Positions 9,272 to 40,217 of a stretch of DNA of 64,000 nucleotides are shown piece by piece. A program made the position numbers and the translations under genes. Every line of letters begins with the position of its first letter. Position 1 is the first letter of the stretch. Below the pieces are notes generated by a model. The model did not search any database. It was not told the origin of the DNA and saw only the letters and a list, made by a program, of their open reading frames with translations. Origin of the DNA: an uncultured Myxococcales bacterium (GTDB lineage Bacteria > Myxococcota_A > UBA9042 > CAIXZC01). The stretch is from NCBI GenBank assembly GCA_964626565.1, contig CAZVFX010000002.1, forward strand, positions 4,822 through 68,821, in the 5' to 3' direction.

Positions 9272-11038
9272 CTATTCGTCCAGGGGTCCGCCTGCGTCTT
9301 CGCAGGCCTGGTTCTCATTTTTGCAGATATCGGTTACGGCCATGTCCCAGCACTCCTGGTCCCAGGGGGTGAAGCATTCGCCGATAACGCATTGCTCCAG
9401 GTCGCCGTAAGCGCTCTGGGCTTCGCCCGTGCCGTCGTAGAAGCAGGTGTACATCTGCTCTGTGAAATCGGGTTGGCCCAATTCCAGGGTCTCCAGGCAC
9501 TGCCGGACCTCAAGGCAGGTCAAGCCGCCGTCCATGCAGTCCTGGAACACCGGATCGCAGGTCGCCCAGGCCAGGTCTGTGCACTCGCTGTCACCTTCGG
9601 GGCAGTCGAAGTAGCCGTTGTCTTCCAGGCAGTCCAGAAAGTCGTTCCATCCGTACTGAGCCGCGGGGTTGCCGTTGGCCAGGCACTCCTGCTTGCACGG
9701 TGTATCGGGGCAGACCACGAAGCACACCCACATTTCGGAGCAGGTCAGTGCGCCGTGGATGCACTGCACAGCCTTGTCCTCGCATAACGGAATGGTAGCA
9801 TCGAAGCAAGCCTGGCCCTCAGGGGGGCAGTCGTCCTGGGTCTGGGCATCTTCCGGACACAGGTCCCAGCAGTCGTAAACACCTACCTCGGTGTAGCAGT
9901 CTATCAACCCGTAGAAAGCAGCCTGTGCGAACTCGGAGCCCGACTGGATACATTCTTGCTGGCACACCTGGCTGCCGCCGGGGCACGCGTTGAGGCATGA
10001 GAAGATGCCGGAGCAGGTGAGCCCTTCCTGAAGCGCACACTGTCCTTCGGCGCCGCACTCCAGGTAGGAAGGAGGGCAGTCAGCGCAGGGGCATGAGCCG
10101 CAGCTTCCGCCGCAACTGTCGTCGCCGCACTCCAGGCCCTCACACTTCGGCTCGCACACGCACACTCCATCCACGCAGATGGCGTCGGGCAGGCACTCGC
10201 CGCAACTGCCGCCGCAGCCGTCGTCATCACAGTCCTTGCCATCGCAGTTGGGAACGCAAACACATTCTCCGCCGACGCAGGTAAGCCCTTCAGCGCACAG
10301 TCCGCATGACCCTCCGCAGCCATCCGTGCCGCAGATCATGTCACCGCAGTTGGGAATGCAAATACACGCACCGTCTTCGTCACATTCGTGGTTGTCCGCA
10401 CACTCCCCGCACATGCCGTCGCACAGGTCGGGCCCGCATTCTTTACCGTTACACTGAGGTACGCAGACGCATTCGCCCTCTTCGCACTCATGGTACTCGG
10501 GGCACTCGCCGCAGCTCTCGCCACAGCCGTTGTCGCCGCACACCTTTCCCTCGCAGTTGGGAATGCAGAGGCACTCTGCGTTCACGCAGTCGTGGTTGTC
10601 CGGGCATTCGCCGCACGTTCCTTCGCAACCGTCAGGGCCGCAGGCCTTGCCTTCGCAATCGGGCAAACACTGGCAGGCGCCGTCCAAGCATGCCTCATCT
10701 TCCCCGCACTCGCCGCAGGTTGCCCCACAGCCATCGTCTCCGCAGGTCTTCCCGTCGCAGTCGGGGGTGCAGCACACACCTTCGCTGCACGCGATGCCCC
10801 CGGCGCATTCGCCGCAAGCTCCTCCGCACCCATCGTCGCCGCACTCCTTCCCTTCGCAGTCGGGCGTGCAGTCCACCTCGCCGGGCCCCGAACCGTCGCC
10901 TGGTTTCACCTCGGCAAAAGCGATCGAATCGCTACCCGCGATTGCGTCCACCACATCGTTCCCGCCCGACTCTCCTGCACAAGACCATGCGGCCAAGACT
11001 ACCAAAAGGGTCGATACCCAAAACCTCGAAGCGATCAT
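9272..11038 (-). CDS. Secreted cysteine-rich protein with about 8 tandem CxPxCxGKxCGxDGCGGxCGxC modules and a Cys-rich C-terminal domain.
   Basis: N-terminal signal peptide MIASRFWVSTLLVVLAAWSCAG. Repeated modules such as TPDCEGKECGDDGCGGACGECAGG. The same module (CGTDGCGGSCGLC) occurs once in the giant neighbouring protein. Confidence 0.7.
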   Translation of the reverse strand: MIASRFWVSTLLVVLAAWSCAGESGGNDVVDAIAGSDSIAFAEVKPGDGSGPGEVDCTPDCEGKECGDDGCGGACGECAGGIACSEGVCCTPDCDGKTCGDDGCGATCGECGEDEACLDGACQCLPDCEGKACGPDGCEGTCGECPDNHDCVNAECLCIPNCEGKVCGDNGCGESCGECPEYHECEEGECVCVPQCNGKECGPDLCDGMCGECADNHECDEDGACICIPNCGDMICGTDGCGGSCGLCAEGLTCVGGECVCVPNCDGKDCDDDGCGGSCGECLPDAICVDGVCVCEPKCEGLECGDDSCGGSCGSCPCADCPPSYLECGAEGQCALQEGLTCSGIFSCLNACPGGSQVCQQECIQSGSEFAQAAFYGLIDCYTEVGVYDCWDLCPEDAQTQDDCPPEGQACFDATIPLCEDKAVQCIHGALTCSEMWVCFVVCPDTPCKQECLANGNPAAQYGWNDFLDCLEDNGYFDCPEGDSECTDLAWATCDPVFQDCMDGGLTCLEVRQCLETLELGQPDFTEQMYTCFYDGTGEAQSAYGDLEQCVIGECFTPWDQECWDMAVTDICKNENQACEDAGGPLDE

Positions 11039-29891: not shown

Positions 29892-30638
29892 ATGTTTAGA
29901 GTCGGCATCATAATGCCTGCCTATTGCGCCGCCTATACGGTGGTCGACACGATTCTGCGCATCCCCGTGGACGCGCTCAGACGGGTCGGCTGCCTTCCGG
30001 AACTCTACGTCGTTGACGACGGCAGCAGCGACGGCACCGGCGCGGCAATACGGGCTGCGGCCCCGTTTCCCGACCTGGCCGCCACCTTGCTCACCCATCC
30101 TCGAAACCTGGGCTACGGCGCTGCCCAGAAGACCGGCCTGGCGGCCTCTGTTCGGGGCGGAAACCAGGCCCACGTAATCCTCCATTCCGACGGTCAGTAT
30201 GCCCCCGAAGAGCTTCCGGACATGCTGGAGCCGATTCGGTCCGCCCAGGCCGACGTGGTCATCGGGTCGAAGTTCAAAAAGGGTCGCGTCCTCGGCCAGG
30301 GAATGCCGTTGGTTCGCATGCTGGGTATCCGCGCGGCCGACCGTCTTGAAAACCGGCTGCTGGGTGTTGGCGGACTGGAGTTTCATTCGGGCTACATGGC
30401 GTACTCGGCCAAAGCGTTGGCGACGGTTCCGTTCGAGACCCTCACCGACCGCTTCCACTTTGACGGCGAGATGGTGCTGTCCGCGGCCAAGACGGGGCTG
30501 ACCACCGAACTGGCACCCATCTCCACGAACTATGCTCGGGGCACATCGAGCCTCCACCCGCTGCCCTACCTCAAGGAGCTGGTTTCAACCGTGCTAAAAT
30601 ACCAGGGCGGACGCTACTGGTTTCAAAAGGAAGGATGA
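29892..30638 (+). CDS. GT2-family polyprenol-phosphate sugar synthase (Dpm1/Ppm1/ArnC/GtrB-like).
   Basis: ATG at 29892, five nt after the upstream stop. GIIMPAYCAAYTV...VVDDGSSDGT...VVIGSKF...RMLG. About 250 aa catalytic domain without a C-terminal TM. Confidence 0.7.
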   Translation: MFRVGIIMPAYCAAYTVVDTILRIPVDALRRVGCLPELYVVDDGSSDGTGAAIRAAAPFPDLAATLLTHPRNLGYGAAQKTGLAASVRGGNQAHVILHSDGQYAPEELPDMLEPIRSAQADVVIGSKFKKGRVLGQGMPLVRMLGIRAADRLENRLLGVGGLEFHSGYMAYSAKALATVPFETLTDRFHFDGEMVLSAAKTGLTTELAPISTNYARGTSSLHPLPYLKELVSTVLKYQGGRYWFQKEG

Positions 30639-32221
30639 TGGGGGAAGTGGAGCCACGCCGGGGATTGCACCCCGAGAAGTCCCGGAAAAAGGTGTCGGGA
30701 CTTTTTGCCGGCCTGCTGTTGCTGGCGCTGGCGGTGGGGTACGTCACCGACTACGTGCGAGTGCATCGGGCAGACGCGGGAGATGTGCAGACGTTGCAGA
30801 TCCTCACCGAGGACTATCACTGGGTTTTTGTGGTCCGGCCGGACAGGGTCGACAACGAGATATGGGAGTTCTTCAAGGCGGGCGCGATCATGTACCCGAT
30901 CATGCCCGTCGTTTATGCCCCTCACATGGCGGCTCAACTGCTCCTGCCCGGGACAGGAGACGCCCAGTTTGTTTTTACCCTCTCTTTGTACCTGACACTA
31001 CTTCTACTGACGGGGCTGTTCTTTGTGGGGTTGAAGAAGGGGCTCTCGGCAACTGCCTCCTTCCTGATAACCGCGGCGGTGCTGCTCAATCCGTTTCTCC
31101 TCTACCTGCTTGCGTCCGCCCCGGTAATTCCTTCCGCCGCGCTGCTGCCTCTGGCCTACCTCGCCTATATTTCCCGGCGCAGCTGGGCGGCTTTTACCCT
31201 GTTCTTCGTGATCGCGCTATCCTATCGCTTCGGCTCCTTCTTCCTGTTTCTCCTGGTACTGAGCGAAGGGCCCCCTTCCAAAGATGAGGATACAGGCCTC
31301 TTCAGGTATTCACTCATCGCTCTGGGCGCACTTATGTGCATTCAGACTGCGTCGCAATTCCTGCTCGTGCAGTTCAACGACTATGTGAAAGAGCTCGAGG
31401 GGCTGCGGGTGGGGTACACTTTCGGCATGTTGAAACGGTTTATCACCGCGCCGCTGTCGCCGGATGTCCTCTTTCGTGAGTTTCAGGTGGTTGCCTGGTT
31501 GGCCGCGGGCGGCTTCGCCCTGTTCCTGCGCCCCACGACTCGGTGGCGCCTGGTAGGAGCGGCGGGAGTGCTGGGCTATCTCGCCCTGGTCACCGGCCTG
31601 TTTTCCATGAGCGTGGTGCTGGCCACCGGTGTCGCGGGCGTCGCCCTGGTCACGGGAGCAAGTCATCTTCGCCGGTGGCGAACGGGCGTCGCAGCCGCCG
31701 GCGTCGCCGGCGCCATCGCGGTCGCCTTCCTCGCTCCGGTCTTTCCCGCTCCTGCGACCCTCTCCGACAAACCCCCTCTCTTGGAGGAAGGTGTGAAAGT
31801 CACAACCCTCGCCGGTTTTTTCAGCCAGGCTTTGGCTTTGCCCGACGACCCGCATCTCGACCGGGCTGCAACGGTGCTGGAGGGATTGAGTCAATCCGGG
31901 CGCTGTTTCGTCGACCCGTTGCTGGTGGCAACGGTTCCTGCATCGGCTTGCGCCGAGGTGGTTCCGCTGGGCAAGACTGCCCCGGACGACGGGGTTGTCG
32001 TCGAGCGCGTCATTTATGATGAATCCCCGGGGGCCGAGGCTTTCCGCAGCGCGCTGGTCAGAGACCTGAGGGTGAGCGAGCAGTCGCTTGCACGCTTCGA
32101 TGCCACAGTCAATGAGGTCAGGAATTCCGGGGAGTTCGGGGTGTCAGTGACCAGGGATGGGTTGCTGATTCTTGACCGATTGCCTCAGGGGCAGCACTCC
32201 GGCGGCGGCGGCTCGCCGTAG
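30635..32221 (+). CDS. Polytopic integral membrane protein (more than 10 TM), possibly a second GT-C-type enzyme or flippase-like partner of the upstream GT pair.
   Basis: The start ATG overlaps the GT2 stop (ATGATG). Continuous hydrophobic helices followed by a C-terminal soluble ~120-aa domain. No family recognised. Confidence 0.45.
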   Translation: MMGEVEPRRGLHPEKSRKKVSGLFAGLLLLALAVGYVTDYVRVHRADAGDVQTLQILTEDYHWVFVVRPDRVDNEIWEFFKAGAIMYPIMPVVYAPHMAAQLLLPGTGDAQFVFTLSLYLTLLLLTGLFFVGLKKGLSATASFLITAAVLLNPFLLYLLASAPVIPSAALLPLAYLAYISRRSWAAFTLFFVIALSYRFGSFFLFLLVLSEGPPSKDEDTGLFRYSLIALGALMCIQTASQFLLVQFNDYVKELEGLRVGYTFGMLKRFITAPLSPDVLFREFQVVAWLAAGGFALFLRPTTRWRLVGAAGVLGYLALVTGLFSMSVVLATGVAGVALVTGASHLRRWRTGVAAAGVAGAIAVAFLAPVFPAPATLSDKPPLLEEGVKVTTLAGFFSQALALPDDPHLDRAATVLEGLSQSGRCFVDPLLVATVPASACAEVVPLGKTAPDDGVVVERVIYDESPGAEAFRSALVRDLRVSEQSLARFDATVNEVRNSGEFGVSVTRDGLLILDRLPQGQHSGGGGSP

Positions 32222-33915
32222 TCGCATTCGCAACACGCGTCTGCACACGGATCCGGCGCACAACATTCCTCCCATACTCCTTCCGGAAGAATGCCGTACT
32301 CGCATTCGCAGCACACCGCTTCACAGTCGATGGCGTCCTTTTCGTGGCCATCGGCCACCACGTCCACCGGGATACCGTATTCCGGCTGCACCGCAATGTC
32401 CGGCTCAACGGTGTCCTGGGGCTTTATGTCCACGGGCACGCCGTAGTCCGGCTGCACCGAGTTGTCCGGCTCCACCACGTCCACCGGAATGCCGTATTCG
32501 GGCTGCACCGCAATGTCCGGTTCCTTGTTGTCCTGGACCTTGATGTCCACCGGAATGCCGTAGTCCGGTTGCACCGTCATGTCCGGCTCAACGCCGTATT
32601 CCGGGCAGCAGAAGTCCGGCTCTTTCACGTCGGGCTCCGGAGCCTGGTCTACGCTGACAACATCGACTCCGTATTCGGGAGTGGCTGACGCATCCTTCTT
32701 TTCGTCATCGCTGCCAAGCTGGCAGCTTGCAACGCCCAAAGACAACATCAACGCGGCCGCGGCCGAAGCCGCGGTCTTCGCCAACTCACCACGCTGGTCA
32801 CCACCCTCCAGGTGGACCAACCGGTGGTAGCAGTACGGGTCTTCCTTGAGCGCGTTGGTGAACGCCGAGGCGACGCACTTCGCGCCGCCGCGGCAGATGC
32901 CGCGATGCCTGCACTTGCCGCAGTACCCTTCCAACGTGTCGGTGGAAAAGTCACGGTTGTACGCGAAAGCGCCGGGGCGGTGCCACAGTTCGGGTAACGG
33001 AACCTCCCGCAGGTTGCCTTCTACGAAGGGGTCGTTTTCACCTTGCCACGCCTGCATGGACAGGCACCCTTTTACGCCGCCGTCCGCCTCGATGCCGATG
33101 GCCTGCATGCCGGCCTGGCACCCCTGCCAGCTCTCCTTCCTTCCCCGCCAGCCCCTTCCCCTGAGGATCCGGTCGTGGGGGCCGTAATAGCCGATGGAAT
33201 CGCCGACGTTCAGTTGGATCTCGCCCTGCTTCTTCAGCCGCGCCAGCAGCGGAATAAGTTCCAGGAACTGTTCCGGGCGAATTACCCAGTCTTCGTGGTC
33301 CGAAAGATTGCCCATGGGCTTGGCGAGCTGCAGCCGCCACATGGAAGCGCCGGCATCGATCGCCACCTGCCGTACCTCTTCCAGGCGGGAGAAATTGAGT
33401 TGGTTGACCGTAGTCATGATCCCGACCCGCATTCCTGCGCGGTTGAAATCAGCTACCGACTCCAGCGAGCGGGCGAATGCATCGGCGCCGCGGATGGTGT
33501 TGTGGATCTCCTCCGGTCCGTCGATGCTTATCCCGACGTTGCTCATGCCCGCGTCCGCGGCTCGGCGTGCGACTTCGCGGCCCTTGTCCCGGCTGGAGTA
33601 CACCCCGTTGGTCACCATGTTGCAGTAGATATCTTTCCTGGTAATAGCTCTGGCGATGGCGTCCCAGTCTTTGCGCAACGTGGGCTCGCCGCCCGAAAGG
33701 GTAATGAGCTCGCACCCCAACTCGGCCAGGTGGTCCACTACGCCGAAGCACTCGGCGGTGGTCAACTCGTTTTCACGCACCGTCCCTGCCCGGGACCCGC
33801 AATGCCCGCAATTCAGGTTGCAGGCCAGCGTCAACTCCCATACGCAGTTGCGCGGCTTCCAGTTTTTTTCACCTACCCGCTTGCGGGCGTCTTCAAACGA
33901 CATGGTATTGTTCAT
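32185..33915 (-). CDS. Radical SAM/SPASM-domain enzyme fused in-frame to a TM/lipobox-like segment, six 19-aa tandem repeats (VQPEYGIPVDVVEPDxx) and a C-terminal 46-aa tail with 12 Cys.
   Basis: CNLNCGHC (CX3CX2C) at aa 32-39. SPASM cysteines CGKCRHRGICRGGAKC. Hydrophobic segment KTAASAAAALMLSLGVASC. Repeats encoded by ~57-bp DNA repeats at 32340-32650. Tail CEAVCCECEYGILPEGVWEECCAPDPCADACCECDYGEPPPPECCP. Confidence 0.7.
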   Translation of the reverse strand: MNNTMSFEDARKRVGEKNWKPRNCVWELTLACNLNCGHCGSRAGTVRENELTTAECFGVVDHLAELGCELITLSGGEPTLRKDWDAIARAITRKDIYCNMVTNGVYSSRDKGREVARRAADAGMSNVGISIDGPEEIHNTIRGADAFARSLESVADFNRAGMRVGIMTTVNQLNFSRLEEVRQVAIDAGASMWRLQLAKPMGNLSDHEDWVIRPEQFLELIPLLARLKKQGEIQLNVGDSIGYYGPHDRILRGRGWRGRKESWQGCQAGMQAIGIEADGGVKGCLSMQAWQGENDPFVEGNLREVPLPELWHRPGAFAYNRDFSTDTLEGYCGKCRHRGICRGGAKCVASAFTNALKEDPYCYHRLVHLEGGDQRGELAKTAASAAAALMLSLGVASCQLGSDDEKKDASATPEYGVDVVSVDQAPEPDVKEPDFCCPEYGVEPDMTVQPDYGIPVDIKVQDNKEPDIAVQPEYGIPVDVVEPDNSVQPDYGVPVDIKPQDTVEPDIAVQPEYGIPVDVVADGHEKDAIDCEAVCCECEYGILPEGVWEECCAPDPCADACCECDYGEPPPPECCP

Positions 33916-34029
33916 TGGAACCTCCGTTTCATCCTCGTCCCTTTGACTAACCCCTGCCGGTCATCATCTGGGAACCAACAAGATGATACTTGAAAACAGG
34001 CGGCTTGACAAAGGCCGCAGTGCTCATGT

Positions 34030-34232
34030 ATCCATGATTCGTGATTCTTCGGGTGCCCCTCGGAGGGGCGAATAGGGAAACAGGTGAAGAACCTGTGCGG
34101 ACCCGCCACTGTAATCGGGTGCCCTGTTCCATGAGGCCACTCGGGTCGATGAAAGACCCGGGGAAGGCGGAACAAGGCCGGCGTCGTTGTTGACGACTCC
34201 ACCCCGTAAGCCAGGAAACCTGCCCGAGTAAA
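34030..34232 (+). ncRNA. Cobalamin (adenosylcobalamin) riboswitch.
   Basis: Conserved core elements GGTGCC...AATAGGGAAACAGGTGAAGAACCTG..GCGGACCCGCCACTGTAA (B12 box GCCACTG) and the 3' element AAGCCAGGAAACCTGCC. A downstream T-tract (GCGGCGTTTTTT) may form the expression platform. Located 5' of a TonB-dependent receptor gene. Confidence 0.8.
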
Positions 34233-34262
34233 AATTGCGGCGTTTTTTCGCACCTCGCGGAT

Positions 34263-36200
34263 ATGGGTGGCAACGCTATGCCGACACGGGCACTCACAAT
34301 TCTTACCCCTCTCATTCTCGGCGCCACCATCTTTTGCATCGGCCCCCGAAGTGCGTCTGCCGACGACATAGTATTGCCCCCCGTCACCGTCAAAACCGAG
34401 CGTCCCCCGCTGCTGGAATCCTACTCAACAGTAACAGTGATCGAGGTGGCCGGTGAGGACACCGGCGGCAAGACCGTGGCCGACTTTCTCGAGACCGCGC
34501 CCGGTGTACAGATCATCCGCTCCGGCTCTCTGGGCCAGCGGGAGACCGTCACTATTCGAGGCAGCGACAGCAAGCAGGTGCTCGTCCTCGTCGAAGGTTT
34601 TTACACCAATGACCCCCGGGCCGGCGGTACGGATCTCTCTCAGATCCCACTGGACTCGGTGGAATCCATCGAAATATATCGTGGTGCGAGAGGTGCACTC
34701 GCAGGTGCGAGCGCCATGGGCGGTGTGGTGGTGGTGCGCTTGAAGAAGGGTAGGAAGAAGGTGAGCGGGACCAGACGCCTGACGCTGGGCGGCTATGGTG
34801 GAGAAGGCTACGAATCGGTTTCCGGCGCCTGGTCGGTGCAAGGGGGCGGGGCTTATTTCTCGTACGCTCACGCCCAGGCGCAGGGGGAGTACCCCTTTGT
34901 CGACCGCAACGGCAACGACCGCGTCCGGGAGAACAACGCGTCGGTCTCAGACCTCCTTACCGTCCGGTACGGCACCCGGGTGGCGCCGGCCACCCGTCTG
35001 GACCTGGTGAGCACCATGGCGCTCACCTGGCGGGAGTCGCCGGGGCTGGACCAACAGCCCGCGGATACGGCTGCAGAAGAGCAAAGCAACTCGTTTCTGG
35101 TCGGGCTAAAATTGCTCGCGCTGAAATTCCCGGTGGAAGGGGCTTCCCTGGGAGGAAAACTGGCGTGGAACATGTGGCGCTGGACTTTTAACGAACCCCT
35201 TCCATACATGCCCCCGCCGTCGGATACCCTCAGTCTCAACCACCGCTTCGACGGCTCCCTTGAAACCCGGGTGAAGCTGCCCTGGGACCTGGCGGTGACC
35301 GCCTCTGTCTCGGGGGCCCGGGAGATGGCCGATATCACCCGCCGGTACGGCAAGAACGTTGACAAGGCCCGCACCCTCGGTGACCAGGCTGTGGCGCTGC
35401 TGGTGGGAGACCAGTCGGACCGGGCGCGCCTGACGCTAAGACTCCGCCACGCCATGTCCAGCGTGGACGCGTACGAAAACGCCTGGGCCCCGGCCCTCGA
35501 GGGAGAGGTCGACCTTTTCGGCGGCCTGACTTTCGGTGCGTCGGCCGGTCGTTCCTACCGGTACCCGACATTTGATGAGATGTATTTCGAAGCGTCCGGA
35601 ATCCGCGGAAATCCCGACTTGAAACCAGAGGACATGTGGGGCGGCGATGTCAGCCTCAAGTATGAGGCCGGGCCGCTATCTGCCCTGGCGTCCGTCTTCT
35701 ATCATGACATAGCGAAGACCATCCTCTTTCTGCCCGTCACCCCTTACCTCATCGAGGCCGGCAACAACGAGCACGGCGTGACGGCAAAGGGCGCTGAAGC
35801 AGAGGTCTCGGCCCGGCTTTGGAAGTTCGAGCTTCTGGGCTCGTTTACCTGGGTCGATGCGGTGGAAGACGAGCTGGACCGGCAGTTGCCCCTCAGGTCC
35901 CCCTATTCGGGCAACGTGCAACTCCGCTTCGCGCACGGCCGCGTCGCGGCCAGGCTGACCGGCAACTACCGTTCGGCATTCTACTTCGACCGGTTCAACA
36001 ACCTGGAGGAAGAGGGCAGGGTGCTCTGGGGCGCCGGTGGTTCGGTCAACCTGGGCCAGGGATTCAGGCTTATGCTCGAGGCGAGGAACATCACTAACAA
36101 GTTGGACGCAGTAGACAATTTGCAGCATCCGTTACCGGGACTTTCCTGGCTGGCGACTATGGAAAAGAGATGGACAGGAGGAAGTGATGAAGAAAAGTAA
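34263..36200 (+). CDS. btuB: TonB-dependent outer-membrane receptor, probable cobalamin transporter BtuB.
   Basis: Signal peptide. Plug domain (TVIEVAGED...ETVTIRGSDSKQVLVLVEGFYTND..IPLDSVESIEIYRGARGALAG). C-terminal beta-barrel. Sits directly downstream of the B12 riboswitch. Confidence 0.75.
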   Translation: MGGNAMPTRALTILTPLILGATIFCIGPRSASADDIVLPPVTVKTERPPLLESYSTVTVIEVAGEDTGGKTVADFLETAPGVQIIRSGSLGQRETVTIRGSDSKQVLVLVEGFYTNDPRAGGTDLSQIPLDSVESIEIYRGARGALAGASAMGGVVVVRLKKGRKKVSGTRRLTLGGYGGEGYESVSGAWSVQGGGAYFSYAHAQAQGEYPFVDRNGNDRVRENNASVSDLLTVRYGTRVAPATRLDLVSTMALTWRESPGLDQQPADTAAEEQSNSFLVGLKLLALKFPVEGASLGGKLAWNMWRWTFNEPLPYMPPPSDTLSLNHRFDGSLETRVKLPWDLAVTASVSGAREMADITRRYGKNVDKARTLGDQAVALLVGDQSDRARLTLRLRHAMSSVDAYENAWAPALEGEVDLFGGLTFGASAGRSYRYPTFDEMYFEASGIRGNPDLKPEDMWGGDVSLKYEAGPLSALASVFYHDIAKTILFLPVTPYLIEAGNNEHGVTAKGAEAEVSARLWKFELLGSFTWVDAVEDELDRQLPLRSPYSGNVQLRFAHGRVAARLTGNYRSAFYFDRFNNLEEEGRVLWGAGGSVNLGQGFRLMLEARNITNKLDAVDNLQHPLPGLSWLATMEKRWTGGSDEEK

Positions 36201-37500
36201 TTGGATCAAGATGTGTGTGTTTGCGTTTGCGTTTGCGCTGGCCGCGTCCTGCGGCAGCAGCTCCAACGGCGACGAGGACACCAAAGTTGGCGAAGACACG
36301 ACTCAGGCCGATGTGTTAGCGGAAGTTGGGGAGGAAGACCTGGTGGAAGCGGATCTTGCTGCAGATGCCGCGGTTGACCCGGATACGGCCGTGGATCCGG
36401 ATGCGGCTGTGGACCCGGACACCGCTGTGGACCCGGACACCGCTGTGGACCCCGACCTGGCCGAAGATATCGTCCAACCGCCGCCGGTGTACCCGCTCTT
36501 TGCCGCTCCGGAAGGTGTGCTGGCCCACGGCGGCAAGATCTTCGTGACCAACACCAACGGCGCTTACAACGCCGACCTGGGCAAGATGATCTACGGCCCC
36601 GGTTACGTCACCGTGCTCAACGCCGACGACCTCTCCTACTACGGGCAGTTCGAGACCCCGTACCAGAATCCCCAGTATCTGCTCAAAGCCGGCGACCGAC
36701 TGGTGGTGGTGTGCTCGGGCACCGCGGAAATGGACGAAAACTGGGTCATGTCCCCGGACACCCCGGGAGGCGCGGTACTTTACGATCCGGCTACCTTGGA
36801 ACAGTTGGGCGACGTGGCCGTACCCGCCGGCACTCCAGAACCCCTGGCCGGCTTCCCCGGCGCGGCAGCTTACGCACCCGCCGAGGACCTGCTCCTGGCG
36901 GGCAGCGGGACGTCAGGCTTTGTCTATGTCATGAACCTCACCAGCCTCGAACTGCAGGCCTCCATGCCCATGTACGCCGACGCAGGTGCGGCCAACGATC
37001 TCATTCTTCCCGTTGTTGACGGCGCAAAGGCCTATGCTGCATCGTTCAACCGGGGCATGGTCTACTCGTACGATCTCGAAAAGGAGGGGGAAGGTCCAGC
37101 TTACGATGTCACCGAAACCGACGAGCTGGAAGGACCCACCGACGTGCTGCTGGCAGATGGCGTCCTGTACGTGCTCAACTCAATCTCATCGTCGGTCGCG
37201 GCCCTGGACCTGGCGTCTGGCGACGTGACCTTTCCCTTCACCACCGGCGCAGTCCCCAACCGCCTCTCCCACCACGACGGCAATCTGTTCGTGGTGAATT
37301 CCGTCGACAATAACCTCACGAAGTACGATATTGAAGCCGGGGAGGTGACCCAGTCGTTCGCATCGTTCGATCCGGGCACCAACCCGTGGGACATGGCCGT
37401 GGCCGGAGACGCCGGATATGTAACCGGCTACATGACGAACAACCTGGTCAAAGTCGACCTGACCACAGGAGACATCGTTGCAACAAAAGGCAACGACTAA
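36187..37500 (+). CDS. Surface/periplasmic lipoprotein with a D/A/V/P-rich linker and a YVTN-type beta-propeller, a BtuG-like candidate B12-binding accessory protein.
   Basis: Lipobox FALAASC. The linker AVDPDTAVDPDAAVDPDTAVDPDTAVDPD is encoded by 18-bp DNA repeats. Repeated beta-propeller blades (GKIFVTN, GDRLVVVCSG, GFVYVMN, GVLYVLNS, GNLFVVNS). Position between btuB and btuFCD. Confidence 0.5.
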   Translation: MKKSNWIKMCVFAFAFALAASCGSSSNGDEDTKVGEDTTQADVLAEVGEEDLVEADLAADAAVDPDTAVDPDAAVDPDTAVDPDTAVDPDLAEDIVQPPPVYPLFAAPEGVLAHGGKIFVTNTNGAYNADLGKMIYGPGYVTVLNADDLSYYGQFETPYQNPQYLLKAGDRLVVVCSGTAEMDENWVMSPDTPGGAVLYDPATLEQLGDVAVPAGTPEPLAGFPGAAAYAPAEDLLLAGSGTSGFVYVMNLTSLELQASMPMYADAGAANDLILPVVDGAKAYAASFNRGMVYSYDLEKEGEGPAYDVTETDELEGPTDVLLADGVLYVLNSISSSVAALDLASGDVTFPFTTGAVPNRLSHHDGNLFVVNSVDNNLTKYDIEAGEVTQSFASFDPGTNPWDMAVAGDAGYVTGYMTNNLVKVDLTTGDIVATKGND

Positions 37501-38419
37501 CCATCAGTACCCCGAGGGCGAGCGAGGGGCCTGCGCCGCGTCGGCACAGCCGGTTCTAGCCTGTCTTCTGTCTCTTCTCCTCCTCTTTCCGTGCGCCTGC
37601 ACCAAGAAGGACGCCGGCGCACAGGCCTCCTCCAACTTCGACCACGTGTCGAAGAAGGAGCATGCCCGCATCGTTTCCCTGGCCCCCAACCTCACCGAGA
37701 TGCTGTTTCTCATCGGGGCCGGGGACAGGGTCGTCGGCCGCAGTTCGTTTTGCGATTTTCCGGCTGAAGTTTCGCAACTGCCGGTGGTGGGGGGCGGTAT
37801 CAATCCCGATCTCGAGGCGATGCTGTCGCTGAAACCCGACCTGGTGGTCTGCCTCAACTCCCAACTCTCCGCGGTGCCGGCAAGCTTGCTGGAAGAGGGC
37901 GGGGTGGAGCTCTACTGGAGCCGGGTGGAGATCGCGGAGGATGTAGTGCGCACCCTTCAAGAACTGGGCACGCTGGCCGGCGGGGAGGAGGAGGCGAGCC
38001 GAACTTCGGCCGACTTACAACACGAACTGAACTTGCTGTCGGGAAAAAAATGCGACCGCCGTGTTCTGTTCGTTCACGGCCATCGCCCGATCATGTCCGC
38101 GGGGAAGGGCTCTTGGGGCCACCAGCTAATCGAGTTGGCCGGCTACGTCAACGCGCTGGGGGACGTGGAAACCGCGTACCCGGCTCTCGACCTTGAGCAG
38201 GTGATGGCGGCCCGGCCAGACTTCATAATCGATACGTCGTTTGTCGAGGAGCGAAAGCGGCTCGATGAATTCTGGACCCAGTTCGAAAGTGAAGGTAAGG
38301 CCCGGTGGAAAGTGTTGTTCCTGTCCGACAACAGTTTGCTCAGGCCCGGTCCCCGGGTGGTGGACGCTGTGCGGCTGATTCGAGAGCGACTGGCCGATGC
38401 AGGAGGGTGTACGCCATGA
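37478..38419 (+). CDS. btuF: Periplasmic substrate-binding protein of a cobalamin/iron-siderophore ABC transporter (BtuF-like, TroA cluster).
   Basis: RIVSLAPNLTEMLFLIGAGDRVVGRSSFCDFP...LKPDLVV. The start is uncertain (TTG at 37478 gives a signal peptide). The gene's 5' end overlaps a short repeated element. Confidence 0.65.
   Translation: MQQKATTNHQYPEGERGACAASAQPVLACLLSLLLLFPCACTKKDAGAQASSNFDHVSKKEHARIVSLAPNLTEMLFLIGAGDRVVGRSSFCDFPAEVSQLPVVGGGINPDLEAMLSLKPDLVVCLNSQLSAVPASLLEEGGVELYWSRVEIAEDVVRTLQELGTLAGGEEEASRTSADLQHELNLLSGKKCDRRVLFVHGHRPIMSAGKGSWGHQLIELAGYVNALGDVETAYPALDLEQVMAARPDFIIDTSFVEERKRLDEFWTQFESEGKARWKVLFLSDNSLLRPGPRVVDAVRLIRERLADAGGCTP
37499..37550. repeat. Short repeat element ACCATCAGTA-CCCCGAGGGCG-AGCGAGGGGCCTGCGCCGCG at the btuG-like/btuF junction. 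A condensed copy of the sequence at 40205-40325.
   Basis: Direct sequence comparison shows shared blocks ACCATCAGTA, CAGTACCCCGAG and GCGAGGGGCCTGCGCYGCG. Confidence 0.55.
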
Positions 38420-39438
38420 GGCGGTCGACCCTCATCGGAATCGCGGTGTTGGCCGCGCTCACCGCGCTGGCCTTTCTGCTGTATTTGTGTGCGGGCACCA
38501 GGTTTGTCTCACCGCTGGATGTACTGGGCGGGGGGCTCGAAGGGGATGATGCCCTGCTGGTGTACGGTTTTCGCCTCAAAAGAGCGCTGTTGGCAGTGAT
38601 CGTGGGCTCCAGCCTCGCTATTTCCGGGGCTGCATTCCAGGCGTTGCTCCGCAACCCCCTGGCCGACCCGTTTGTGGTGGGGGTTTCCGGCGGCGCGGCC
38701 ATCGGCGGCACCGTGGTGATGGTTACCTTCTCCGCGGTGCTCTCCGCGCTACCTGTGATCTTCCAGTCCATGGCAGTCTTTGTGGGCGCATTCGCAGGCT
38801 CGGTGCTGGTCGCGGTCATGCTCTACTCCCTGTCTACGTCCCGGGGGATGCTGGTCACCAACAGCCTGCTGTTGATGGGGGTTGTGTTCAACTTCTTCGC
38901 CTCGGCCGTGGTGCTGTTCCTCAAAACCATCCTCCATGGCACCAAGTTGCAAGAGGTGCTGTTCTGGCTCATGGGTTCCCTGGCCGTCGAGACGCTCCCC
39001 TGGGGAGTGATCTACATCTCCGTTGTTGCTGTCGGAGTCGCAATGACGGCCCTGCTGTTCCTGGGCAGGCACGTGAACCTCATCTCCGTTGGAGAGGAAT
39101 TCGGCTATGGCAGCGGCGCCAATCCTGAACGCATAAAGAAGCTGTTGTTCCTCTTTGCCTCGGTGCTGGTGGCCGCGGCCGTGTCCATCGCCGGGTTCAT
39201 CGGTTTTGTCGGGCTCATCGTGCCCCACGTGGTGCGCCTGCTGTTCGGTGCTGACCACCGCAGCTTGTTTCCGCTGTCCGCACTGCTGGGAGCGGCGTTT
39301 TTGCTGCTGGCGGATCTGCTTAGCCGCCTCTCCTTCCCCCTGTTCGGCAACCAGCTTCCCGTGGGAGTGCTCACCGCCTTCATCGGCGGACCTGCGTTCA
39401 TCTGGCTGCTGGCGAGGGCGCAAAGGAGGGCGTCATGA
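38416..39438 (+). CDS. btuC: ABC transporter permease, FecCD family (BtuC-like).
   Basis: The ATG overlaps the upstream stop (ATGA) with an AGGAGGG RBS. Nine or more TM helices and the FecCD signature region. Confidence 0.7.
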   Translation: MRRSTLIGIAVLAALTALAFLLYLCAGTRFVSPLDVLGGGLEGDDALLVYGFRLKRALLAVIVGSSLAISGAAFQALLRNPLADPFVVGVSGGAAIGGTVVMVTFSAVLSALPVIFQSMAVFVGAFAGSVLVAVMLYSLSTSRGMLVTNSLLLMGVVFNFFASAVVLFLKTILHGTKLQEVLFWLMGSLAVETLPWGVIYISVVAVGVAMTALLFLGRHVNLISVGEEFGYGSGANPERIKKLLFLFASVLVAAAVSIAGFIGFVGLIVPHVVRLLFGADHRSLFPLSALLGAAFLLLADLLSRLSFPLFGNQLPVGVLTAFIGGPAFIWLLARAQRRAS

Positions 39439-40217
39439 CCGGACCCTCCCTGGCGTGCCGCAACGTCTCCTTCGCCTTTGGCGACAGGGAAGTGCTGTCG
39501 GACATCTCCTTTGCCGCTGATGCCGGTGACTTCGTCGCCGTAATCGGCCCCAACGGCGCAGGAAAATCCACCCTGCTCCGCCTCCTCTCCGGTTTTTTTA
39601 CCTCGCCCAAACAAGGAAGTGGGGTGTGGTGCGGGGGGCGGGAAGTACCCCGGCTGACCGGCCCGGAAAGAGCCGCGGCCGTCGGTTTCCTCCCCCAGTC
39701 GGTGCAGACCTTTTTCCCCTTTACCTGTCTGGAGATGGTGCGCATGGGCAGGTCGGTCCTCTCCCGGGGATTCTCCAACCGGGAGGAAGACGCCCGGGCC
39801 GCAGAAGCGCTGGAGCAGGTAGGTATGGCCGGGTTCGCCAACCGACCCTATCCCAACATTTCGGGAGGAGAGCAGAAGCTGGCGCTGCTGGCCAAGATGT
39901 TTGCCCAGGACCCCCAGGTCCTGCTCCTCGACGAACCGATCGCAGCATTGGACGCGGGCCACGCCTTGCGGGTTATGAAGCTCTTGCGCCAGCGAGCCGA
40001 GTCGGGCAAGACAGTGGTCGCCGTGATGCACGACCTCAACCAGGCCCTGGCCCACTGCAACCGGTTCTTACTCCTCGACCAAGGGGTACAGTTGTTCTAC
40101 GGCACTTCAGCCGAACTTCTCGCCGGCGAACTCCTCCAAAACGCCTACGGCGTCAGTCTCACCACAGTGAGGCATCCTTCCTCCGGCATCCAGTTCCTCC
40201 TGCCGGACCATCAGTAG
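39435..40217 (+). CDS. btuD: ABC transporter ATP-binding protein (BtuD/FecE-like).
   Basis: Walker A GPNGAGKSTLL, signature LSGGEQKLALLAKMF, Walker B LLLDEP. Overlaps the btuC stop. Confidence 0.8.
   Translation: MTGPSLACRNVSFAFGDREVLSDISFAADAGDFVAVIGPNGAGKSTLLRLLSGFFTSPKQGSGVWCGGREVPRLTGPERAAAVGFLPQSVQTFFPFTCLEMVRMGRSVLSRGFSNREEDARAAEALEQVGMAGFANRPYPNISGGEQKLALLAKMFAQDPQVLLLDEPIAALDAGHALRVMKLLRQRAESGKTVVAVMHDLNQALAHCNRFLLLDQGVQLFYGTSAELLAGELLQNAYGVSLTTVRHPSSGIQFLLPDHQ

Follow-up and report, generated by a model that had tools for sequence, protein, structure and literature searches.

A radical SAM/SPASM enzyme and a putative tyramine-splicing substrate joined in one chain by an internal lipoprotein-type signal in Myxococcota

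We report here on a 64,000-nucleotide (nt) stretch of DNA from an uncultured Myxococcales bacterium (contig CAZVFX010000002.1, positions 4,822 to 68,821; the window), which carries a gene whose product couples three elements in a single chain: a radical S-adenosylmethionine (SAM) enzyme with a SPASM region; a lipoprotein-type signal; and an acidic tail with eight [D/E]YG sites and a Cys-rich end (Table 1; residues are numbered from Met1 of the 576-residue protein). In the reading that we favor, with a probability of roughly 55%, the gene is a self-contained splicease-substrate fusion that would give an exported poly-ketoamide lipoprotein: the N-terminal ~370 residues would be a cytoplasmic enzyme of the splicease clade and the C-terminal 178 residues its substrate, with the lipoprotein-type signal lying between the two. 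That the tail is the substrate of the enzyme to which it is attached is, taken on its own, likely. An enzyme-substrate fusion was one of two possibilities raised for this gene in the initial annotation, and it is supported by a conserved single-frame architecture, by the lack of conserved neighbors and by two lineages in which the tail is a separate protein encoded directly upstream of the radical SAM gene.

The enzyme part is defined by two Pfam models, PF04055 and PF13186, which both score above their thresholds within the one open reading frame (ORF; 32185-33915, minus strand), in agreement with the CNLNCGHC motif and SPASM region that the initial annotation had read there. The cluster motif, together with a score above the gathering threshold, places it in the radical SAM superfamily (PF04055), and its seven-Cys C-terminal region places it in the SPASM subgroup (PF13186/TIGR04085). 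Across 93 homologues these seven cysteines (266, 284, 332, 335, 341, 347 and 362) are kept without exception or almost so; they are spaced CX2CX5CX5C, as against the usual CX2CX5CX3C. An AlphaFold2 (AF2) model built on the alignment of the 93 homologues gives the enzyme a predicted local distance difference test score (pLDDT) above 90; its best structural match is PqqE, and the fold also matches SuiB and anSME, the latter being among the best.

The closest affinities of this domain are with two families of peptide maturases. TIGR03913 (‘GDL motif peptide-associated radical SAM/SPASM maturase’) leads the NCBIfam matches at E 2.7e-85, followed by TIGR04103 (‘nif11-class peptide radical SAM maturase 3’) at E 4.5e-83 and, in third place, AhbD at E 2.7e-48. 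Among annotated plasmid proteins, members of TIGR03913 and TIGR04103 and a few unnamed relatives are 35-38% identical to the enzyme domain over 94-98% of its length (E 1e-56 to 1e-74); other classes in these records (MftC, TIGR04347, TIGR04053) reach E 1e-29 or worse. The domain falls within neither family as currently drawn: its score lies outside TIGR04103, with 36.7% identity to the annotated Nostoc member, and of TIGR03913 it matches only profile positions 14-379, the zinc-ribbon extension (~380-477) and the GDL DUF1842/1843 neighbors not being present. Profile comparison places the fusion family as a sister group of TIGR03913/TIGR04103 and not as a member. We take TIGR04103 to be the same family as InterPro IPR026482, to which the splicease PlpX belongs, the ‘Nif11’ annotation of the two agreeing; TIGR04103 is very probably the family of PlpX. 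This prototype splicease is described as a SPASM radical SAM enzyme (IPR026482) that acts on Nif11-type precursors and excises tyramine at XYG; in the same group of reports, some spliceases are said to act without a Y protein (binary systems), splicing is described as leader-independent and effective on tags placed inside proteins, and the ketoamide splice products as inhibitors of serine and cysteine proteases (PMC11414181, PMC11626197, PMC10533398, PMC11002830). Hundreds of splicease pathways are reported, with 27 enzyme-substrate pairs verified and 939 systems predicted (Scott et al., 2022). For PlpX, PcpX and RhaX, the X-Y-G site is reported to be placed next to the SAM cluster.

The nearest relatives of the enzyme are consistently paired with XYG substrates. 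The Nostoc TIGR04103 gene is flanked upstream by a Nif11 precursor ending in ...IALYGLPPELF and downstream by a 71-residue gene product; ahead of the Burkholderia TIGR03913 gene, three DUF1843/DUF1842 proteins are encoded, in which PYGV, MYGV and MYGV come just before the GDL motif; DUF1843 peptides likewise precede an Aureibacter radical SAM gene, and one of these contains QPYGAG. The window gene resembles TIGR04103 systems in co-encoding an X-Y-G substrate, its eight [D/E]YG sites standing in the same polypeptide; it lacks their Nif11/NHLP leader and their type I Y protein, which is like a RiPP recognition element (RiPP: peptide made by the ribosome and modified after translation). Two further observations concern relatives of the enzyme. 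On what is labelled an Agathobacter rectalis plasmid (L070, 2806-2913), an unannotated 35-residue ORF, MFNLEELSLEFVKISELKTSKNLFGPVMYGTGVRM, which ends in PVMYGTGVRM, lies just upstream of genes for a radical SAM enzyme and a major facilitator superfamily transporter; it has the look of a splicease precursor that annotation missed, in a bacterium of the human gut. A CxxC...CPxC zinc ribbon also recurs as an accessory module in the clade (L068, 2204-3679; L069, 2938-4362; L071, 2698-4320; L060, 686-1327): it is C-terminal in the Burkholderia and Aureibacter TIGR03913-type enzymes, N-terminal in the Tropicibacter enzyme and situated on the substrate-like protein in L060. It may mediate enzyme-substrate recognition.

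The tail of the window protein is built around the same X-Y-G trio. All eight of its tyrosines sit within [D/E]YG, with X at residues 414, 439, 451, 473, 490 and 512 in the repeat region and at 539 and 565 in the Cys module. Given the composition of the tail (D+E 0.26, G 0.06), the chance of such flanks is ~0.016 per Tyr and ~1e-15 for all eight. In the tails of 105 homologues, 506 of 604 tyrosines precede Gly, and 501 also follow Asp (266) or Glu (235); the motif is absent from the enzyme parts of the same 105 proteins. The logo of 495 sites reads [C/P]-[D/E]-Y-G-[V/I]-x-P-[D/E/P], with Gly in 100% and Pro at +3 in 91%, and the motif is kept at 45-60% homologue identity although the spacers vary. 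The context in the window tail, P-X-Y-G-I/V-P-P-D/E, resembles both the core of the Nostoc precursor and the Plp splice tags, which are published as RP(L/G)YGLPI.

These sites are strung along an acidic, low-complexity chain. The tail (residues 399-576) has a net charge of -39, gives no meaningful match in Pfam or NCBIfam, DUF1842/1843 included, and is disordered over residues 400-526 in the AF2 model (pLDDT <50). It would suit splicing, as it is predicted to be disordered and splicease substrates must be so. The original description is accurate except for its six 19-residue repeats: the [D/E]YG units of the repeat region alternate at 17 and 22 residues, and Tandem Repeats Finder returns a 117-nt super-repeat at 32355-32589 in 2.0 copies with 84% match and sub-periods of 51 and 66 nt.

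A Tyr-centered motif does not by itself fix the chemistry, and the fusion might instead carry out another Tyr-directed radical reaction at the [D/E]YG[V/I]xP sites with no excision of tyramine: a C-C or C-O crosslink from Tyr to Val/Ile or to Pro (cyclophane/triceptide-like); a PqqE-like Glu-Tyr crosslink; epimerization; or hydroxylation. The motif is of the aromatic-x-x kind with conserved V/I at +1 and Pro at +3, PqqE is the best structural match, the scores below the cut-offs of the splicease models leave room for diverged chemistry, and RcsX did not accept an acidic X. We nevertheless consider such a reaction unlikely: no family comes nearly as close as the two with XYG substrates; PqqE, WgkB and other crosslinking families are 40-60 orders of magnitude worse in E-value; and the invariant trio X-Y-G, with its fully conserved Gly, is exactly the splice site.

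The second conspicuous feature of the tail is its cysteines. Fifteen follow the enzyme: 12 in the last 46 residues, as had been noted at the outset; an FCC pair at 436-437; and the lipobox Cys398. The 48-residue module that holds the twelve has a pLDDT of 58-84 in the full-length AF2 model and of 78 when modelled alone (best of five models); in isolation it finds no fold match in the PDB with Foldseek. This Cys density beside Asp and Glu had suggested Cys-to-Asp/Glu thioethers of the kind made in SCIFF, ranthipeptide and QhpC systems, and SPASM enzymes that form such bonds in the QhpD-, ranthipeptide- or sactipeptide-like manner do exist. The homologues speak otherwise: six of them have only 0-1 Cys in the tail, yet retain 3-9 [D/E]YG units. 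Cys therefore cannot be essential to recognition by the enzyme, and the universal feature of the tail is the X-Y-G motif and not Cys. Six of the eight sites in the window protein lie outside the Cys module, and of these only the one at 439 adjoins Cys, in the FCC pair. Neither the indispensable Cys nor the family score of a sactipeptide, ranthipeptide or QhpD thioether synthase is found: among the top 25 NCBIfam matches the sactipeptide-type models are weak (StsB 97 bits against 625; SkfB 86 against 300), no ranthipeptide or QhpD-type model occurs, and the best families are of splicease type. Since disulfides or metal binding offer a simpler account of paired cysteines in a domain that is exported, we regard a thioether-forming role as improbable.

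The coupling of this enzyme to this tail extends well beyond the window. A protein search gave 794 matches, none informatively named, of which more than 100, with lengths of 500-660 residues, align to 95-100% of the query and are 45-90% identical to it. Their tails share a common plan: a K/R-rich stretch; an Ala-rich hydrophobic (h) segment with a lipobox; an acidic spacer; and 1-12 [D/E]YG units. Cys modules with the pattern IDCxxVCCxC[DE]YG[IV]IPxxV[WY]xxCC number from none to five or more, and the tails usually close with DPCxxxCCxCDYGxPPPxCC. Some homologues (L032, 2219-4246, and P0136) bear a second module, VDCxxVDCxDP...CC..[AL]EYGVEP, with up to ~70 Cys per protein. By these comparisons the tail is highly modular and faster-evolving than the enzyme. 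Scanning with the Cys-module alignment recovered 59 loci in species-representative genomes and 36 in metagenomes. About 75 of these 95 are fused in one frame; most of the others end at a contig edge, and a few are frameshifted or have an in-frame stop. The named hosts are nearly all Myxococcota (Myxococcales, Bradymonadales, Nannocystaceae, Anaeromyxobacteraceae, Polyangia, Haliangium, Kofleriaceae), a few labels being generic (Pseudomonadota, Gammaproteobacteria, ‘proteobacterium’). The fused design is common to hundreds of Myxococcota proteins.

The fusion gene is a self-sufficient unit. Across the homologue loci compared, no conserved neighbor or small partner gene stands beside it: the neighbors include SecA and Bmp/ABC genes at one locus, and an H+-pyrophosphatase and a MaoC gene at another. 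A search with the tail alone, which is insensitive for so low-complexity a sequence, returned a single match, itself a fused gene cut by a contig end (P0121). Split forms, which had been proposed as something to look for, do occur as rarities in two lineages. In the first (L066, GCA_053496215.1, found independently in the metagenome locus L094), a precursor of 193-196 residues with an N-terminal lipoprotein signal, MKKTVMTGFVLSSLLVGC, and four CCxC[DE]YG modules is encoded 24 nt upstream of a 398-residue radical SAM/SPASM enzyme, which is 47% identical to the window enzyme domain and so within the range of the fused family. In the second (L060, 686-1327), a gene whose stop overlaps the start of a stand-alone radical SAM gene encodes a protein of 213 residues, in which a zinc ribbon and an Arg-rich stretch come before a hydrophobic segment that has a lipobox Cys, followed by an acidic spacer and a single CCECDYG module; the stand-alone enzyme has 35% identity to the window enzyme and 482 bits on TIGR04103. 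The enzyme and tail belong together, because they are fused in most loci and the split forms keep both adjacent or overlapping.

Two side observations touch on the split forms. The pair of the first lineage is preceded by a gene for an extracytoplasmic function (ECF) sigma factor and an abutting one for a 288-residue protein without family match (L066, 6553-8000; L094, 2457-3323). The latter is possibly an anti-sigma factor, and the arrangement hints at regulation by envelope stress. A further candidate, L038 (2555-4159), has an in-frame stop in the acidic spacer just past the lipobox, after which the tail goes on in the same frame; it was rejected as a split form, being a single case in which the stop leaves the signal attached to the enzyme, and is probably a sequencing error or a pseudogene.

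These linkages also bear on the proposal that the protein is a membrane-anchored radical SAM enzyme acting on an unrelated molecule, with the tail as an unmodified periplasmic domain for anchoring, metal binding or interaction. In modelling, the Cys module can form a small, apparently independent fold; so acidic a tail with Cys clusters could bind cations; exported Cys-rich metal-binding peptides, such as the bufferins, exist; and the splicing of the tail is something that we infer from its sequence. Such a design would, however, leave unexplained why every tail keeps the target motif of the enzyme's nearest relatives and why the two genes of the split forms adjoin or overlap, and among the homologue loci compared no other candidate substrate gene is conserved nearby. 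We hold it to be rather improbable.

Between the enzyme and the tail lies the segment RGELAK-TAASAAAALMLSLGVAS-C398, which combines the sequence elements of a lipoprotein precursor: a charged n-region (R375, K380); an h-region, T381-S397, within the 7-22 residues usual for such signals (mean Kyte-Doolittle 1.71 over residues 382-397); and a lipobox of the form [LVI][ASTVI][GAS]C. Among the 105 homologues, 103 have a lipobox-like ending X-X-[GAS]-C, 99 have K/R within 8 residues upstream of the h-segment, and the median length of the latter is 16 residues. It departs from a lipoprotein precursor in position, the signal being internal, after 374 residues of enzyme. The same elements stand at the N-terminus of a stand-alone homologue (P0124), which shows what the internal hydrophobic segment of the fused proteins would correspond to: a genuine lipoprotein signal. 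The lipoprotein-signal reading advanced earlier is to this extent upheld at the level of sequence. AF2 predicts a long helix over residues 363-395, spanning most of the segment, and by analogy this helix may double as the activating helix needed by spliceases. In BLASTP, the last ~20 residues of the split-form enzyme of L066 (ARMAEALLASIASATSK; 9680-9803) align to the fused signal segment; this stretch is amphipathic and charged, and may be a remnant of fusion/fission or an enzyme-activating helix. A terminator scan additionally picked out a GC-rich hairpin (CGCGGCTTCGGCCGCGGCCGCG) with a T-rich run inside the Ala-rich signal codons (32752-32773, minus strand), most likely a by-product of GCN Ala codons, which could cause transcription or translation to pause just ahead of the tail.

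The alternative offered originally, two genes with the downstream one starting at an in-frame TTG, gained no backing. In this scheme the TTG of Leu378 would start a lipoprotein precursor modified in trans by the full-length or a truncated enzyme, so that one ORF would give two products. The TTG stands 3 codons ahead of the h-region and would yield a normal-looking lipoprotein signal, MAKTAAS..., and, to judge by the split lineage, a precursor is viable on its own. The nearest GGAGGG, however, is 19 nt upstream, and no Shine-Dalgarno sequence is found at the proper spacing. In 40 homologous genes, with control windows inside their enzyme parts as background, an in-frame ATG/GTG/TTG occurs within 14 codons upstream of the h-segment in 23 (57.5%) against 56%, and a start with a Shine-Dalgarno sequence in 6 (15%) against 15.6%; in several homologues the stretch concerned contains neither Met nor Val nor Leu. 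An internal translation start was therefore rejected, as starts are not enriched and no usable Shine-Dalgarno sequence accompanies the TTG, and the two-product scheme is in our estimation very improbable. The gene product is best taken as one polypeptide, with nothing to point to a conserved internal start.

What the analysis establishes is the architecture and its conservation, the statistics of the motif, the relationship to the two families, and the coupling of enzyme and tail in both fused and split forms; from these we envisage the following course for the splicease-substrate fusion. In the cytoplasm, the enzyme would act on the unfolded tail of its own chain, or of a neighboring one, and remove tyramine from the [D/E]YG sites. 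The internal signal would then insert with its N-terminal side in and its C-terminal side out, and the tail would be translocated. Cys398 would next be diacylglycerylated and signal peptidase II would cut ahead of it, removing the enzyme like a very large leader; in this lipidation and cleavage our confidence is lower than in the full mechanism. The product would be an acidic, envelope-anchored lipoprotein of ~18 kDa with up to eight ketoamide residues, whose Cys module would be stabilized outside the cytoplasm by disulfides or metal. As to its role, our guess is a protective or inhibitory coat of the envelope with acidic P1-like residues: it may inhibit proteases, since ketoamides serve as warheads of protease inhibitors, or it may protect the envelope in another way or bind metal. 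A bolder formulation, which we put forward tentatively, is that this is a natural system in which the enzyme itself serves as the leader, Sec, Lgt and LspA stripping it off in place of a dedicated leader peptidase, and in which the product, held in the envelope by its lipid anchor, has Cys-knot modules and a backbone of the beta-amino-acid/ketoamide kind.

Several considerations weigh against the proposed course. We know of no precedent for a lipoprotein signal behind a cytoplasmic domain of ~375 residues. The signal would leave the ribosome before the tail, so that the tail must wait in the cytoplasm for modification, and a whole enzyme would have to be made for each molecule of product, which is costly. 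That signal peptidase II cleaves here is purely something we infer; the segment could simply anchor the protein in the membrane. The enzyme scores far under the curated cut-offs, with 287 against 592 (591.75) bits for TIGR03913 and 279 against 725 bits for TIGR04103. The link to PlpX goes through the probable identity of IPR026482 with TIGR04103, whose descriptions match. Lastly, the only published acidic site, the DYG of RcsA, is reported as not spliced by RcsX.

The genomic surroundings of the gene are as the initial annotation had them: it stands alone on the minus strand in this stretch, between GT2 and membrane-protein genes and a B12 riboswitch. On its downstream side are a convergent GT2 gene and the gene for a 528-residue membrane protein (30635-32221); the 3' ends of the latter and the fusion gene overlap by 37 nt (32185-32221), and the terminator scan finds no terminator-like site between the two. 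Upstream, the scan for promoter-like sites found 1 against 0.4 expected from shuffled sequence, a consensus match only. Divergently beyond it, a cobalamin riboswitch (34034-34241, plus strand; Rfam 108 bits) leads an operon (34034-40217) with genes for a TonB-dependent receptor, a 438-residue lipoprotein, a BtuF-like protein, FecCD and an ABC ATPase. The closest distinct homologue (L005) is flanked by the same B12-uptake block, and it is the only one among the homologues examined to be so. Since only this closest relative retains the operon, the riboswitch is unrelated to the fusion gene. A cobalamin role for the enzyme was likewise rejected, as it has no B12-binding domain match in Pfam or NCBIfam and its homologues lie in other contexts. 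The 438-residue lipoprotein (36184-37500) has a signal peptide ending in AASC, then tandem D-P-D-[AT]-A-V hexapeptide repeats and a beta-propeller-like C-terminus with weak PQQ_2 and DUF6923 matches; acidic, Pro-rich tethers after a lipobox seem to be a habit of the source organism.

Table 1. Features of the fusion gene and its upstream region, in window coordinates
Feature	Coordinates	Strand	Details
ORF: radical SAM/SPASM enzyme, signal segment, [D/E]YG repeats and Cys module	32185..33915	-	576 aa plus stop; ATG start
Radical SAM core, aa 27-182	33370..33837	-	Pfam PF04055, E 5.6e-25, 88.9 bits against a cut-off of 29.5
CX3CX2C motif CNLNCGHC, aa 32-39 (C32/C36/C39)	33799-33822	-	Motif Cys invariant in 93 homologues
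SPASM region, aa 266-362	32830..33120	-	Pfam PF13186 at aa 266-335, 27.9 bits against a cut-off of 21.5
Lipoprotein-signal-like segment RGELAKTAASAAAALMLSLGVASC, aa 375-398	32722..32793	-	R/K n-region, 17-aa Ala-rich h-region, lipobox V-A-S-C398
In-frame TTG (Leu378), candidate internal start	32782..32784	-	Not supported
Acidic, Pro-rich repeat region, predicted disordered, aa 399-528 (130 aa)	32332..32721	-	Six [D/E]YG[V/I]xP sites; AF2 pLDDT <50
48-aa Cys module, aa 529-576, IDCxxVCCxCEYG..CC..DPC..CCxCDYGxPPPxCC, 12 Cys	32188..32331	-	Alignment A1, 22 invariant columns
Shine-Dalgarno GGAGG, 5 nt before the ATG at 33915	33921..33925	-	Read from the sequence
Promoter-like TTGTCA-17-TATCAT, ~68 nt upstream of the ATG	33983..34011	-	Consensus match only

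No route other than tyramine splicing is known by which ribosomal products acquire backbone beta-amino acids with a ketoamide. If the enzyme does serve as the leader, this would be the first radical SAM enzyme-substrate fusion, the first exported spliceotide of protein size and the first case of an internal lipoprotein signal that serves for processing, and it would be widespread in Myxococcota. The logic of RiPPs would then extend to an envelope lipoprotein with a physiological role in these bacteria, for example as a protease-inhibitor or metal-binding coat, and protein engineers would gain a naturally single-component splicease. With enzyme, substrate and signal in one gene, the acceptance of an acidic X, action in cis and the destination of the product become testable with a single construct. 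Genome mining that looks for a small precursor gene beside a radical SAM gene may overlook such fusions. A review of 2022 states that the isolation of a final spliceotide product from a native host had not been achieved by that time. The view that the architecture is undescribed held up within the literature searched, which gave no account of a fused splicease-substrate lipoprotein; the main splicease survey (Scott et al., Chem 2022) was outside that search, and fused forms may be among its 939 predicted systems. The accessions TIGR03913 and TIGR04103 likewise had no match in the texts searched.

Set beside known systems, the fusion shares parts with several of them. QhpD with QhpC, SCIFF, and the ranthi- and sactipeptide maturases are also SPASM radical SAM systems that act on peptides rich in Cys and Asp/Glu, and QhpC ends up periplasmic; they are, however, not close to the window enzyme by hidden Markov model (HMM) comparison, Cys is dispensable here, and X-Y-G has no role in thioether systems. 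The SPASM enzyme anSME/AtsB modifies unfolded, signal-peptide-bearing proteins in the cytoplasm before export. It is among the best structural matches of the window enzyme; it is separate from its substrate, and its chemistry is that of formylglycine. The bufferins, described as Cys-rich RiPPs whose action on copper takes place outside the cytoplasm, again have separate enzyme and substrate, with MNIO oxidation chemistry. Both anSME substrates and bufferins carry their signal peptide at the N-terminus, as does the precursor of the split lineage L066 but not the fused form.

The borosins (OphMA-type) have the same order of parts, with the enzyme N-terminal and the core C-terminal in one chain. 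Their modification is iterative, in cis or in trans within an oligomer, and the product is then freed by proteolysis (prolyl oligopeptidase); split and fused forms are both reported as natural, much as here. Their enzyme is unrelated, being a SAM-dependent N-methyltransferase, and no export signal lies between their domains.

The systems of TIGR03913 with DUF1842/DUF1843 (Burkholderia, Azospirillum, Aureibacter) are the best-scoring family, at 36-38% identity, and their partner proteins carry [P/M]-Y-G-[V/A]. Their substrates can be whole proteins of ~200 residues with one site and no export signal, whereas the window tail has eight sites and a signal. The enzymes of this family end in a zinc ribbon, the window enzyme in a signal segment followed by the substrate; its tail has no GDL motif or DUF1842/1843.

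The spliceotide systems (PlpX with PlpY, PcpX, RhaX, RcsX/RasX; PlpA/RhaA-type precursors; Morinaka et al., 2018; Scott et al., 2022) likewise pair radical SAM with SPASM, and TIGR04103 is one of the two best matches of the window enzyme. Both sets of substrates have X-Y-G in a P-X-Y-G-hydrophobic-P context, often several per substrate, and Cys flanks the sites in both, the RcsA and RasA cores being described as having a disulfide. The differences are as follows: the X and A genes of spliceotide systems are separate, with or without Y, while here there is one polypeptide; their published sites mostly have Met or Leu at X, while Asp/Glu occupies 99% of the sites here; and their substrates are Nif11- or NHLP-led peptides, in place of a 178-residue acidic repeat protein behind a lipoprotein-type signal. 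In addition, no Y protein or leader is evident in the fusion, its HMM score is far under the cut-off, and the family is, by its named hosts, all but restricted to Myxococcota.

The nearest engineered counterpart is the RhaX-leader fusion, in which a helix placed on the C-terminus of a splicease gives an efficient single-component enzyme (Richter et al., Chem Sci 2024, PMC11414181). In the window protein, too, a predicted helix directly follows the C-terminus of the enzyme. The engineered fusion is artificial and carries only a leader, with no core, whereas the helix predicted here bears the features of a lipoprotein signal.

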